A DNA stretch of 64,000 bases from Chloroflexota bacterium (lineage in GTDB: Bacteria > Chloroflexota > UBA11872 > VXOZ01), in the NCBI GenBank assembly GCA_963663275.1, contig OY760183.1:1408001-1472000 (forward strand), read 5' to 3'. Shown here piece by piece: positions 10,151-51,383 of this stretch. The notes below the pieces were generated by a model, which saw only the letters and a list, made by a program, of their open reading frames with translations, did not search any database and was not told the origin of the DNA. Both the position numbers and the translations under genes were made by a program. Numbering within the stretch: the stretch's first letter is position 1; every line of letters starts with the position of its first letter.

Positions 10151-10446
10151 GAGACCTTTGCGTAACCGGAGAGGGAATTAACGAGGCCCACCGCGCACGC
10201 GCCTCTTGTCCACTCTCCCCACAGGAGAGGCTGACAGGGGTATGTATTCTATGAACGACTTCACGTGTCATTCCGAGCGGAGCGCAGCGGAGAGAGGAAT
10301 CTAAGGCGTTCGCTGTAGAAACGTCGGTTCTAGATTCCTCGCTCCGCTCGGAATGACACGTGCCTAGCCCTGTCAGCCCAGGAGAGGGGATAAGAGGCGC
10401 GCGCGCTGAAATTCGTCTGTTCCCTCTCCGGTTACGTAAAGGTCTC
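10151..10446. mobile_element. MITE with IS1106-like ends (type A2) carrying a nested 150-bp MITE (type B, 10229-10378)
   Basis: 27-bp TIR GAGACCTTTGCGTAACCGGAGAGGGAA (1 mismatch); inner element GGCTGACAGGG...CCCTGTCAGCC flanked by direct repeat CAGGAGA. Confidence 0.85.
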
Positions 10447-15508: not shown

Positions 15509-15702
15509 CCCTCTCCCCGGGGAGAGGGCAGGGGTGAGGGGGAATCCTCGCCGGTTCCGCCCCATCTCGCAAGAATAACGTATGATTCGCCGCGTAATCT
15601 CCCCTCACCCTAGCCCTCTCCCCCAGGAGAGGGGATAAGAGGCGCGCGCTGAGCTTCGTCTGTTCCCTCTCCGGTTACGCAAATCTCTCCTCGGGGAGAG
15701 GG
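15509..15702. repeat. Cluster of CCCTCTCCC..GGGAGAGGG hairpins, including the empty type-B site and an A2 right end
   Basis: ctctcccc-CAGGAGA-ggggataagaggcgcgcgctga...ttccctctccggttacgcaaa matches 10379-10440 but has a single CAGGAGA. Confidence 0.75.
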
Positions 15703-23313: not shown

Positions 23314-23409
23314 GGCGCGCTACCTGTTGCTTCTCGCTTCATGCGTATCAGCCGCGTCTATCTTCACCGTACACCCGCAAACTACAGGCGGTCAAGCCTC
23401 GCGCGTTCT

Positions 23410-23520
23410 CCCTCACCCCGGCCCTCTCCCCAGGGAGAGGGAGAAAAGAGCGTGACTGACCGGCCTCTCCCCAGGGAGAGGGTGTCCTGAGCGCGTCCGA
23501 CCAGTGCTATGCAAAGGACT
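23410..23520. repeat. Two CCTCTCCC-CAG-GGAGAGGG hairpins plus a degenerate IS end
   Basis: ccctcaccccggccctctccccagggagaggg, a second shorter copy, and ctatgcaaaggact at about 23507. Confidence 0.65.
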
Positions 23521-33730: not shown

Positions 33731-33993
33731 GATGCTCTTCCTCAGTTGACGCGCCCACGCGCGCGCCGGACCCAGGGGGCCGCCGCGCCGCAGTTTTCTG
33801 TGTAGACAACACGTGCATTATACCATAGGGCTCAACGCGACACGCCGCGTGTGATTTCACGGGGCCGCCGGCCGCTTTATACTCCAAGACTTAAGGCCAC
33901 AATGACACATTTCGGCGAGTATGGCAAGTTGTAGGCGTGAGGCGGCCGTCCGGGCGGCCGGATTTCACCCTCACCCCGGCCCTCTCCCTGAAG

Positions 33994-35232
33994 GAGACCT
34001 TTGCGTAACCCTGGTTTGGCCCTTGGTGGGGGAGTAGTGGGTGCTAAATTGCGGTTTTTGGCCTTTGTCGGCGGCGTTCGGCCTGTGCAGGCGCGTCAGG
34101 GCGCTGCCGGTGCGGTCTTTTGCCGGCCGTGCGCTGCCGTTGCGACCCGGTCTTCCCCTTTCTGGCGGTGTGTGGCCGTGCGGTTACCGCCTACGCCGTC
34201 AGCGCCTCCAGCTTGCGCAGGTTGTACGCCAGCAACTTCAGCCACATCTCTACCGTGTTCCGCCCAAGCCCGCGGTAGCGCACCCGCCGGTAGCCGTAAC
34301 TCCGCTTCAGCGTGCCGAACACCCGTTCCACTGCTGCCCGTATCGGCTTGATCGCCGCGTTGCGTTCTCGCTGCCATTCCGGTAAGCCGCGCTGGTTCTT
34401 GTGCGAGCGGTGCATGATGCCGTCCGCTATCCCTTGCGCCCGCAGCCACGCCCGCCGCTCCTTGGACTCGTACGCCCGGTCACCGTACACCGTTCCTTCA
34501 TCACCGCTCACCAACTGGTCCGCCACCGTACTCTCCGCTACTTTCGCCGACGTTAGCTCCGCCCGCCGCACCAACCCGCTCCCCTGGTCCACCCCAGCGT
34601 GCACCTTGTACCCAAAGTGCGCCTGCCGCTTCTTTCCGCTCCGCGTCCAGTCCGCGTCCGGGTCTTTCTCGCTCTTGCCCCCCAGGCCCGCCGAGACCGG
34701 CGGCCGCCGCACCTGCGCCTCTACCAACGTCGCGTCCAGCAGCGTCCCCTCCTTCACCAGCAACCCACGCTCCTCCAACTGCCCTACCAACTCCGCAAAC
34801 AGCTTCTCGCTTACCCCGTGCCGCTCCAACTGCGCTCGAAACCGGCTCAGCGTCGAGTGATCCGGCGTGTCCTCCGCCAACCCCAACCCCACGAACCGCC
34901 GAAACGAGATGCGGTCGGCCAACGCCTCCTCCATCTGCGGATCCGAGAGACCATACCACTGCTCCAACAACAGGATCTTCACCAGCATCAGCGGCGGATA
35001 GCTCGGCCGCCCCTCACCGGAGGCGTAGATGCCCGACACCACCGCGCCCAACCGCTCCCAGTCCACCACTTCATCAATCCGCTCCAGCCGCTCGTTCCGA
35101 CCCAATTTCTCCGGTAACCACTGCTCCAACAGTGACGGTCGTCCCATCTCGCGGTGCATGGCGCTCTCCTGTCTGCTTGCGGTACACTCACCCTAGATTC
35201 TCCCTCAATTGCGGGAGTTATGCAAAGGTCTC
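33994..35232 (-). mobile_element. IS5-family insertion sequence (IS1106-like ends), 1239 bp
   Basis: TIRs GAGACCTTTGCGTAAC / GTTATGCAAAGGTCTC; flanking direct repeat CTGAAG (33988-33993, 35233-35238). Confidence 0.92.
34191..35159 (-). CDS. IS5-family DDE transposase
   Basis: GRPSYP, WYGLSD, PDHSTLSRFR (DUF772-like); catalytic D (LDAT), D (GDRAY) and E (RAAVERVF). Confidence 0.93.
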   Translation of the reverse strand: MHREMGRPSLLEQWLPEKLGRNERLERIDEVVDWERLGAVVSGIYASGEGRPSYPPLMLVKILLLEQWYGLSDPQMEEALADRISFRRFVGLGLAEDTPDHSTLSRFRAQLERHGVSEKLFAELVGQLEERGLLVKEGTLLDATLVEAQVRRPPVSAGLGGKSEKDPDADWTRSGKKRQAHFGYKVHAGVDQGSGLVRRAELTSAKVAESTVADQLVSGDEGTVYGDRAYESKERRAWLRAQGIADGIMHRSHKNQRGLPEWQRERNAAIKPIRAAVERVFGTLKRSYGYRRVRYRGLGRNTVEMWLKLLAYNLRKLEALTA

Positions 35233-35262
35233 CTGAAGGGAGAGGGAGAAAGATGGCGGAAA

Positions 35263-35460
35263 GGATGGGGGAGAAATGGCTTGACTTTGCACTGGCGTTG
35301 GTTGTACGTGCGCCCTGGATTCCGGCTTTCGCCGGAATGACGGAACTATGCAAAGGTCTGCAAAGGGATACGGAACTGTGCAAAGGTCTGCAAAGGGATA
35401 CGGAACTGTGCAGAGGTCTCTAAGCGGATAAGGATCTGTGCAAAGGTCTCCATAGGGATG
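35263..35460. repeat. Right half of a type-A1 MITE followed by 4 tandem 30-bp copies of the IS end
   Basis: ggatggggg...ggattccggctttcgccggaatgac, then (cggaactRtgcaaaggtct-N11)x4 at 35341, 35371, 35401 and 35431. Confidence 0.8.
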
Positions 35461-41043: not shown

Positions 41044-41338
41044 GAGACCTCTGCAAAACCCCTTCCCCATCGAGGGCTGACAGGGGTAGGCAACTGTCAT
41101 TCCGAGCGGAGCGAGGAATCTAGAACCGATATTCTTTCAGCGAAAGCCTTAGATTCCTCTCTCCGCTGCGCTCCGCTCGGAATGACAATAGAACTCGGAT
41201 GTAGTATGCCTACCCCTGTCAGCCATCGAGGGGGAAGGCCGGGATGGGGGTTAACAGGATTGACTTCTGCCATCTGTAGTTGTAGATGCGCCCTGGATAC
41301 CGGCTTTCACCGGAATGACGGAGTTTTGAAAAGGTCTT
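41044..41338. mobile_element. Type-A1 MITE with nested type-B MITE (41075-41223)
   Basis: Ends gagacctctgcaaaac / gttttgaaaaggtct; inner GGCTGACAGGGGTAGGCA...TGCCTACCCCTGTCAGC flanked by CATCGAG twice. Confidence 0.85.
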
Positions 41339-42770: not shown

Positions 42771-42842
42771 GGGCACGACACTCCCCGGCAGGGACACGAC
42801 GCCCCCCGGTAGGGGCACGACATGTCGTGCCCCTACCGGGGG
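42761..42842. repeat. Half-REP 21-bp tandem copies plus a 40-bp perfect palindrome (42803-42842)
   Basis: cccccggtaggggcacgaca repeated; CCCCCG-core-CGGGGG. Confidence 0.85.
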
Positions 42843-44550: not shown

Positions 44551-44728
44551 CCTCACCCTAACCCTCTCCCAGAGGGAGAGGGGACAAGAGGCGGGCTAGG
44601 CATTGTCAGTTGCCTCTCCGGTTACGCAAAGGTCTCTACAGGAGAGGGAACTTTCAAGACTTTCTCCCACGTGGAGAGGGAACTTTCAAGGTTTTCTTCC
44701 ACATGGAAAAGGAACTTTCAGGATTTTG
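44551..44728. repeat. Hairpin REP, A2 right end and a 32-bp tandem repeat (about 2.7 copies)
   Basis: cctctccggttacgcaaaggtctc; ggagagggaactttcaag...ccacRt units at 44641, 44673 and 44705. Confidence 0.7.
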
Positions 44729-50126: not shown

Positions 50127-50266
50127 GAGACTTTTGCATAACTCCGTCATTCCGGCGAAAGCCGGAATCCAGAGCGCATTCACAACCAAAAACGTCATGA
50201 AGTCAAGCCGCTTCACCCCCATCCCAACCTTCCCCCTCGATGGGGAAGGGGTTGTGCAAAGGTCTC
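50127..50266. mobile_element. Type-A1 MITE, empty allele (140 bp)
   Basis: TIRs gagacttttgcataac / gttgtgcaaaggtctc; contains GTCATTCCGGCGAAAGCCGGAATCC and the hairpin ccttcccc-ctcgat-ggggaagg with a single CATCGAG on the minus strand. Confidence 0.85.
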
Positions 50267-51086: not shown

Positions 51087-51383
51087 GTGACCTTTGCAAA
51101 AGCCCCTTCCCATCGAGGGCTGACAGGGGTATGTAAGTGTCATTCCGAGCGGAGCGAGGAATCTAGAGATGCTGAATTTGCAGGGCTGTGTTCTAGATTC
51201 CTCTCTCCGCTGCGCTCCGCTCGGAATGATACGTCAAGGCGATTCAGGATTGCCTACCCCTGTCGGCCCATTGAGGGGGAAGGTAGGAATGGGGGTAAAA
51301 GGGATTGACCCTTGCTATCTTTAGTTGTAATGGCGCCCTGGATTCCGGCTTTCGCCGGAATGACAGAATTATGCAAAAGATTC
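51087..51383. mobile_element. Type-A1 MITE with nested type-B MITE (51118-51268), itself inside a CCCTCTCC..GGGAGAGGG hairpin
   Basis: Ends gtgacctttgcaaaa / ttatgcaaaagattc; flanks CATCGAG / CATTGAG; host hairpin arms at about 51075 and 51387. Confidence 0.85.

Follow-up and report, generated by a model that had tools for sequence, protein, structure and literature searches.

Preferential insertion of an IS5-family element, and of MITEs with the same ends, into a REP-like hairpin of a Chloroflexota genome, with a target duplication that follows arm spacing

The insertion sequence and its insertion site

An intact insertion sequence (IS) of the IS5 family lies in the loop of a hairpin resembling a repetitive extragenic palindrome (REP) within a 64,000-nucleotide stretch of a Chloroflexota genome (contig OY760183.1, positions 1,408,001 to 1,472,000, forward strand), which we refer to as the window. 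The genome, G000, consists of one contig of 3,531,182 bp with 64% G+C. Coordinates are those of the window unless given as genome or G000:C1 positions. The features of the locus, where TIR denotes a terminal inverted repeat and ORF an open reading frame, are as follows.

33968..33987 (+): REP-like unit, left part, CCCTCACC-CCGG-CCCTCTCC, a one-sided extension and the left hairpin arm (from the sequence)
33988..33993: target duplication CTGAAG, left copy, forming the complete spacer between the arms (from the sequence)
33994..35232 (–): IS5-family IS, 1239 bp, the sole blastn match in G000
33994..34009 (+): left TIR, GAGACCTTTGCGTAAC, 16 bp, read from the sequence
34191..35159 (–): transposase gene, intact, 322 aa, the only ORF of the element (ORF and profile matches)
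35217..35232 (–): right TIR, GAGACCTTTGCATAAC in minus-strand reading, 16 bp
35233..35238: target duplication CTGAAG, right copy (from the sequence)
35239..35246 (+): right hairpin arm, GGAGAGGG (from the sequence)

An initial annotation had described an intact IS in the loop of a REP-like hairpin at 33968..35246, and the layout CCCTCACC-CCGG-CCCTCTCC-CTGAAG/element/CTGAAG-GGAGAGGG proved exact.

The transposase matched the Pfam profiles DDE_Tnp_1 (112 bits) and DUF772 (95 bits), and its score of 297.6 bits against the NCBIfam model NF033581 (transpos_IS5_4, IS5 family; cut-off 140) places it in the IS5 family. The IS1182-family model NF033551 gave 200 bits via the N-terminal part of the protein, below its cut-off of 270, and target duplications were present too, so that membership in that family was not found. 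Residues D142, D227 and E278 were invariant in an end-to-end alignment of eight sequences with identity down to 43%, and from their position they probably form the Asp-Asp-Glu (DDE) triad. The architecture is of IS5 type, with a single ORF, a length of 1239 bp and 16-bp TIRs complementary at 15/16 positions, and the 27 relatives described below share this type of architecture. Members of the IS5 group make a short target duplication of fixed length, 4 bp. This property was not found here: the duplications had a mode of 5 bp, ranged from 4 to 8 bp and tracked the spacing of two half-sites.

The repeat hosting the IS has the form CCCTCACC-N4-CCCTCTCC / GGAGAGGG, and CCCTCTCCC matched 13 times in the window compared to 0.72 matches expected. 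Exact CCCTCTCC-N-GGAGAGGG units numbered 294 in G000, where the inverse arm order did not occur; their spacers measured 4 nt (147 units), 5 nt (107), 6 nt (31), 7 nt (6), 8 nt (1) or 12 nt (2). Among the 292 empty units with a spacer of at most 8 nt, 277 carried the one-sided CCCTCACC-N4 extension, and the outer flanks were unconserved. The hairpins folded as single-stranded DNA with a median of –9.0 kcal/mol compared to –2.4 kcal/mol for shuffles. The family was present in 17/17 searched genomes of the genus. It is a short, abundant palindrome, as REPs are, and its location was intergenic in the examples read.

Hairpin arms adjoin the terminal inverted repeats across the genome

The TIR 16-mer, allowing up to two mismatches, matched 12 times in the window (0.03 expected) and 257 times in G000 (97 exact, 96 with one mismatch and 64 with two). 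[quoted passage not shown] Immediately outside them, CCCTCTCC (at most one mismatch) ended 3–7 nt from GAGACC at 114/257 TIR ends, and at exactly 5 nt in 91 of these, when random expectation is about 0.07–0.09% per distance and about 0.4% over 3–7 nt. Pairing of neighbouring opposite ends yielded 86 elements, with arms on both sides in 40, on one side in 12 and on neither in 34; another 85 ends remained unpaired, 22 of them with an arm.

The distances depend on where the element starts. A G at position –1 of 226/257 ends suggested an outermost base one position further out (GGAGACC, which would leave a 3-bp duplication). This was rejected in favor of a start at GAGACC, because T stands at –1, and is included in the duplication (CTCAAT, CTCGAT), in identical IS copies of genome G004 and in MITEs of G007 and G015. 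The likeness of the arm GGAGAG to the element tip GGAGAC was considered as a possible "end mimicry" and given no weight, as relatives with the same tip use unrelated palindromes.

Full-length relatives and an empty orthologous site

A search for further IS copies to add to the flank table of G000 returned only the window copy, and relatives elsewhere were used instead. The protein search covered 41 genomes (G000 and 40 relatives of the same class) and yielded full-length transposase homologues of 59–79% identity in 12 other genomes, the nearest at 79%. All 27 relatives fetched were bracketed by GAGACCTTTGC-type ends 1177–1248 bp apart, so that, together with the window copy, 28 full-length IS copies were examined. 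Both hairpin arms were present at 12 of the 28 (L001, L002, L004, L005, L012, L022–L025, L030, L031 and L033) and one arm at six. Five more sat in other palindromes: GTCATTCCCGCG/CGCGGGAATGAC (L008, L011, L013), CCCCGC-ACAC-GCGGGG (L027) and CCCCCTAGGGGG (L032). L003 had only a partial arm-like stretch on its left side, and L009 was cut by a contig end.

The same IS type, at 62–69% identity, thus occupies palindrome centres in other families of the class as well (L008 and L027 in G038, L011 in G020, L013 in G039, L032 in G021), and the GTCATTCCCGCG…CGCGGGAATGAC palindrome resembles the subterminal hairpin of the MITEs. Proteobacterial relatives (41–46% identity) had duplications of 4–5 bp. The site of a relative on a Rhizobium etli plasmid (41% identity) reads TTCTCCCC/CAGCG/GGGGAGAA, and that of a relative on an Azospirillum replicon CAGCC/ATTCC/GGCTG.

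The orthologous ftsH/ABC-transporter intergenic site of the sister species G011 holds an empty, intact hairpin, ...CCCTCAC(g)CCGGCCCTCTCC-CGCGCG-GGAGAGGG, with a 6-nt spacer. Insertion targeted to the REP hairpin is strongly supported by this empty site together with the arms at 114/257 ends, 40/86 pairs and 12/28 full-length copies. The initial annotation had named random placement with respect to the hairpin as an outcome that would refute its proposal, and the same flank table shows placement to be non-random.

The arms might instead belong to the element, which would then have true inverted repeats of the form CCCTCTCC-N-GAGACC..., the free hairpins being footprints or solo ends. The arms are mutually inverted and adjoin nearly half of all ends, some hairpins do lie inside MITEs (about 50/292 empty hairpins have a TIR 26–28 nt away), and the spacers of two IS copies are inverted: L005 (G015) has cgccg/cggcg and L030 (G021) cgctg/cagcg, inverted complements instead of direct repeats, which we read as a sign that copies in REPs of opposite orientation have recombined. 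Against this, the spacers on the two sides of an element mostly form direct repeats, 34/86 elements are armless, the one-sided CCCTCACC extension adjoins either end of an asymmetric MITE (11 vs 16), about 79% of empty hairpins lie more than 80 nt from any TIR, and the G011 site is a complete hairpin with no element. We consider it highly improbable that the arms are part of the element. The hairpin arms are the target: the direct-repeat spacers, the armless elements outside REPs, the extension at either MITE end and the empty G011 hairpin all argue for this. The related idea that the hairpins are mostly borne by MITEs, so that the element targets itself, describes a real but minor effect, as a TIR is near only those about 50/292.

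A 14-base TIR pattern matched at least 126 stretches in a contig collection. Many of the matches listed were from Chloroflexota/Dehalococcoidia, and none of those listed was from Neisseria; many single matches in unrelated taxa are, by our estimate, chance hits for a pattern of 14 bases. The ends of the neisserial IS1106 presumably resemble GAGACCTTTGC.

The target duplication follows the spacing of the arms

The usual duplication was 5 bp of the form C-NNN-G. In the 34 armless pairs it was 5 bp in 14, 4 bp in one, 6 bp in two and 7 bp in one. Where both arms stood at equal distance from the element in G000, the two spacers were identical at 21/29 sites with 5 nt, 2/3 with 6 nt and 1/2 with 4 nt. 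These occupied sites were skewed to 5 nt (4 nt at two sites, 5 nt at 29 and 6 nt at three) compared to the empty ones (147, 107 and 31 in the same order). At the window IS the whole 6-bp spacer CTGAAG was duplicated, and a MITE at genome 508216 likewise duplicated 6 bp (CTGGAG).

For the genus, we listed only ends with 6–9 nt spacers (83 ends in 14/17 genomes), full tabulation being confined to G000. In twelve pairs of this list each side had an exact arm at a distance of at least 6 nt, and in eight of them the two spacers were identical (6, 6, 6, 6, 6, 7, 8 and 8 nt). The remaining four comprised one pair whose spacers differed by one base and three whose spacers differed; an internal 5-bp duplication fitted none of the differing pairs. 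Three more pairs had a degenerate second arm, with identical 6-nt spacers in L047 and L061 and one mismatch over 7 nt in L040. Pairs with mismatched spacers are most simply hybrids of recombining copies, an origin that Tobes and Pareja proposed for ISRm22 (PMC1525189).

The clearest case was G004, in which five copies of one 1217-bp IS, 0–7 bases apart, had duplications of CGGG (4 bp), CACGG (5 bp), CTCAAT (6 bp) and CTCAACAG (8 bp), the fifth copy having hybrid flanks. The stagger of a DDE transposase is normally fixed by the geometry of its complex, and a duplication that tracks half-site spacing, even in identical copies of one genome, is unexpected for such an enzyme.

Sequence and structure of the target

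Eighteen insertions outside REPs had a clean duplication of at least 4 bp. Their flanks had C at –1 in 17/18, C at –2 in 13/18 and T at –3 in 13/18, and the mirrored side had G, G, A and G in 13/18, 11/18, 12/18 and 11/18. The resulting consensus, TCC/CNNNG/GGAG, is the inner part of the REP arms. These sites had a mean of 3.6 complementary positions out of 8 in their flanks (2.2 at random), mostly the TCC/GGA triplet, which is too few for a stem. Since such stemless sites share the consensus, the hairpin is dispensable, the REP being best regarded as a pair of half-sites in perfect form; site choice is largely sequence-based. The initial annotation had left open whether targeting was guided by structure or by sequence. 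Targeting itself was borne out, and the stemless sites narrow the choice toward sequence. We infer that the transposase itself reads the half-sites, and that the placing of one strand transfer is sufficiently independent of the other to allow 4–8 bp between them; the non-REP sites argue that a duplex target suffices.

The target could alternatively be read as a structure. The REP would then be engaged as an extruded cruciform or single-strand hairpin, with joining at the stem-loop junctions and the loop as the duplication. The duplication does equal the spacer across 4–8 nt, the hairpins are stable as DNA compared with their shuffles, and relatives in other families are centred in palindromes as dissimilar as ATTCCCGCG..CGCGGGAAT, CCCCGC-ACAC-GCGGGG and CCCCCTAGGGGG. 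Relatives of the IS1182 family, which share DUF772, are described as targeting hairpins of little sequence conservation in the part of the literature bearing on them (PMC4923244). On the other side are the 18 clean-duplication insertions at stemless sites, where duplications of 4 to 7 bp lie between CC and GG, and the fact that sites with one arm also work. We regard a structural target as doubtful. About equally tentative is its fuller form, in which there is no fixed stagger and each active site is placed by one arm of the cruciform or single-strand hairpin and joins at the boundary of arm and spacer. If this were true, the enzyme would be a structure-reading IS5-family DDE transposase, and the relatives centred in unrelated palindromes would be explained.

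The same evidence bears on the proposal that nothing is targeted, insertion being broad and survival restricted to neutral intergenic repeats. REPs are intergenic and presumably neutral, and in this compact genome random insertions would mostly fall in genes. Selection cannot, however, account for the distance of exactly 5 nt between 91 ends and an 8-mer or for the match of duplication and spacer, and the insertions outside REPs have a common consensus. We give survival alone very little credence and retain targeting by half-sites.

MITEs with the same ends

The following elements and hairpins of the window belong to the same repeat system.

10151..10446: composite MITE, 296 bp, same TIR, between REP-like arms (left arm with one mismatch), without target duplication
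15602..15702 (+): one-ended MITE remnant that splits a REP; the seeming free hairpin borrows a MITE-internal GGAGAGGG as its right arm
23409..23443 (+): unoccupied REP-like hairpin, spacer CCAG (DNA fold –8.0 kcal/mol)
44551..44650 (+): left half of a REP, MITE remnant ending in a TIR (44621–44636), then the right arm; arrangement as at 15602
50127..50266: plain 140-bp MITE, same TIR, outside a REP (sequence and TIR match)

Three free hairpins had been reported initially, at 23410, 15602 and 44551. The first is one; at the other two the right arm is MITE-internal and the true arm lies beyond the TIR of the remnant. The 8-mer arms of the hairpins named are 4 or 5 nt apart, not 6. Six short elements had also been said to share the TIR of the IS, which is so at 10151 (0 mismatches), 41044 (two), 42842 (one) and 50127 (one), while the ends at 51087 and 63398 have more than two mismatches and are visible by eye. 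Their grouping as one class of "type-A MITEs" did not hold, since 50127 is a plain 140-bp MITE, those of ~300 bp are nested and 10151 is another composite.

The 140-bp family comprised 47 paired copies of 138–142 bp. The copies of exactly 140 bp (N = 38) had a median pairwise identity of 84%, with two pairs identical and 15 pairs at 98% or more. The ~300-bp "type A" elements (starting at 41044, 42842, 51087 and 63398 in the window; G000:C1:309656-309966 is an example) are 140-bp MITEs with a second, unrelated MITE nested in their subterminal hairpin CCTTCCCC/GGGGAAGG. The second MITE has CTGACAGGGGTA ends (118 and 123 in G000) and an 11-bp duplication, CCCTCAATGGG. Other MITE families hold one or two internal REP hairpins (e.g. 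genome 96569-96770). To the right of the IS, at 35340–35460, lies a remnant of a 140-bp MITE whose TIR-containing end is present in ~4 tandem repeats with a 30-bp period (…ACTRTGCAAAGGTCTGCAAAGGGATACGGA…).

Six TIR-bounded elements of 1177–1334 bp in G000 contained an IS30-family transposase (NF033563, 237.5 bits). They were rejected as the source of the MITE transposase because they are 140-bp or ~300-bp MITEs with a nested 1033-bp IS30-family element that comes with ends and a GGAA duplication of its own. Nine copies of this element, 100% identical, occupy the same position (…GCCGGAA/TCCAG…) in the subterminal hairpin of sequence-divergent MITEs; they lie at G000:C1 40169-41205, 660218-661254, 1342927-1343963, 1666808-1667844, 2087594-2088630, 2470185-2471221, 2814832-2815868, 2919059-2920095 and 3187007-3188043, none of them in the window. 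The result is a third level of nesting (REP, MITE, IS30), and the IS30 ORF crosses the end of its own element and stops in the MITE. Two 1177-bp composites of MITE and IS30 element were 100% identical at two REP sites, with imperfect duplications, which suggests recent movement via the MITE ends.

The MITEs and the IS copies had the same TIR (97 exact and 160 near matches), the same arms and the same duplications. The two TIR variants of the window IS are exactly the two commonest MITE TIR variants, and this IS is the only gene in G000 bracketed by GAGACCTTTGC-type ends. Beyond the TIR, one IS end had a short subterminal match to the MITE consensus (z = 4.0); all other combinations gave z of 1.3 or less.

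Proposed mechanism

We think it likely that the findings have a joint explanation: an IS5-family element whose transposase binds the ends, prefers paired TCC half-sites, duplicates the stretch between them and moves MITEs in trans. The anatomy of the element, its preference for certain targets, the rule for duplication length and the unoccupied orthologous hairpin are observed; the steps that would connect them are as follows. The DDE transposase would bind the 16-bp ends GAGACCTTTGC(R)TAAC and prefer sites in which two inverted half-sites ending in TCC are opposed across a few base pairs; among these, the REP-like hairpin CCCTCTCC-spacer-GGAGAGGG would be the most favored. Joining would occur on each strand directly 3' of a TCC half-site, and repair would then duplicate all that lies between the half-sites, usually 5 bp (C-NNN-G), and 4, 6, 7 or 8 bp with arms at those distances. 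The ~290 free REPs, as short intergenic repeats, would provide harmless landing pads, and gene-less MITEs with the same ends would use the same sites. The window copy itself is presumably active.

Several observations weigh against this explanation. The preference is incomplete, with 143/257 ends and 34/86 pairs armless, and no recognisable palindrome was found at 3/28 full-length copies. The duplication rule has exceptions: 27/86 pairs have a duplication of only 0–1 bp, the spacers are unrelated or inverted at 4/12 IS copies with both arms, a 4-nt spacer at genome 1042377 goes with a 5-bp duplication that includes one arm base, and at genome 40128 and 442163 a 4-bp repeat stands beside a 5-nt spacer. 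The 4-nt spacer is the commonest empty class (147/292) and yet accounts for 2/40 occupied sites. As the IS is present once, G000 gives no full-length replicate. Finally, the MITEs do not qualify as internal-deletion derivatives of the IS, having almost only the 16-bp ends in common with it, and a search with this protein found no transposase homologue in G008, G001 and G012, where MITEs with perfect duplications nevertheless occur.

The last two points also favor a variant in which targeting is real but the MITEs were amplified by an earlier or lost relative, or the window IS is inactive. The MITE interiors are not derived from the window IS, the median identity of the 140-bp MITEs is only 84%, MITEs with perfect duplications occur in genomes in which no homologue was found, and the nearest IS relatives are 79% identical. 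Against it stand the window IS as the only gene with these ends in G000, the coincidence of its TIR variants with the two commonest of the MITEs, and the exact identity of some MITE copies, and of 1177-bp composites at separate sites, which points to recent movement. We hold this variant to be possible, though on the whole improbable. The initial annotation had called the IS the probable driver of the MITEs. It is indeed the sole TIR-bracketed transposase gene, and the points on the other side are the slight similarity beyond the TIR and the MITEs in G008, G001 and G012. Movement of the MITEs in trans by a transposase of this kind is likely from the shared ends, arms and duplications; that the window copy drives them is plausible, on circumstantial indications.

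Comparison with known systems

REP- or hairpin-seeking IS are a known kind, and in this respect the core result widens the known range by a family and a phylum without adding a principle. The new points are the precision of an IS5-family element and, above all, the spacing-dependent duplication. The enzyme offers a simple, testable system for the positioning of strand transfer, with 322 aa, 16-bp ends, a 20-bp target and a tunable spacer. Preferences are also stacked: the MITEs hit REPs, and an IS30-family element and a second MITE family hit MITE hairpins, giving nested piles that leave genes undamaged.

Tobes and Pareja (2006) described REP targeting in five IS families; the passages concerned list ISPsy8, ISPa11, ISPpu9, ISPpu10, ISRm22 and ISRm19 as precise "type 1" cases (PMC1525189). 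The only IS5-family case given there, ISNm1106, is of "type 2", near REPs (4/7 and 7/14 copies) without broken REP flanks (PMC1525189). The initial annotation knew of no REP targeting for IS5; this loose association is an IS5-family case in print. ISNm1106/IS1106 of Neisseria meningitidis thus shares family and REP association with the present element; according to the same passages the association is loose there, whereas here hairpins are split (PMC1525189). As to "type 1" association in the sense of that paper, broken REP fragments and direct repeats directly flank the IS as it describes, but the frequency falls short, at 12/28 copies and 114/257 ends.

A close parallel is ISRm22 of Sinorhizobium meliloti (IS4 family, Transposase_11), which, as far as the relevant passages go, is likewise a DDE element that splits REPs, enters its palindromic consensus target at the axis, has a short direct repeat of 6 bp, and has some hybrid repeats ascribed to recombination (PMC1525189). 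It differs in family and host, in having all copies in REPs compared to about half here, and in its fixed 6-bp repeat compared to 4–8 bp tracking arm spacing; those passages do not describe MITE partners (PMC1525189). IS1397 and ISKpn1 (IS3 family) are given in the same source as the experimentally supported REP-targeting IS, with specificity ascribed to the transposase (PMC1525189). Like the present element they insert into REP palindromes; unlike it they belong to the IS3 family and have a two-ORF, frameshifted transposase. IS1272/TnSha1 of Staphylococcus (IS1182 family) combines a related type of transposase with hairpin-forming inverted repeats as target, and differs, in the sections that treat this, in making no target duplication, deleting part of the hairpin and using targets without sequence conservation, whereas here there is a duplication and a half-site consensus (PMC4923244, PMC5678879). 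The open-access literature yielded nothing closer on hairpin targeting by IS5-family elements or on MITEs of Chloroflexi.

Other repeats near the ends

G000 has four copies of another DDE_Tnp_1 gene, with quite different ends and a different host repeat. The element is ~1.23 kb long, ends in …AATGCTGTCGCATTAA and uses the host repeat GGGGGAC(A/G)AGCCCCCGCGCTACG (G000:C1 381613-384000, 1063147-1064358, 1097993-1099226 and 3017998-3019231). One copy adjoins the only gene resembling a REP-associated tyrosine transposase (RAYT, Y1_Tnp), which is followed by an array of GGGGGAC(A/G)AGCCCCCGCGCTACG. A cognate RAYT flanked by CCCTCTCC hairpins was not found in G000, the sole Y1_Tnp match (43.7 bits) being the one that adjoins GGGGGAC(A/G)AGCCCCCGCGCTACG. 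A RAYT as the source of the REPs was rejected, as the only RAYT-like gene of G000 belongs to this other repeat family.

At 42800–42842 a MITE end adjoins another long palindrome, GGTAGGGGCACGACATGTCGTGCCCCTACC, a repeat also found beside other TIR ends (e.g. genome 1540119). Runs of two or three units in the same direction, each consisting of a TIR, ~22 nt, a hairpin arm and a spacer, occur at G000:C1 727180-727420, 756640-756800, 1539960-1540180 and 214960-215300. They look like one side of repeated nested insertions whose other side was lost by adjacent deletion or one-ended events.

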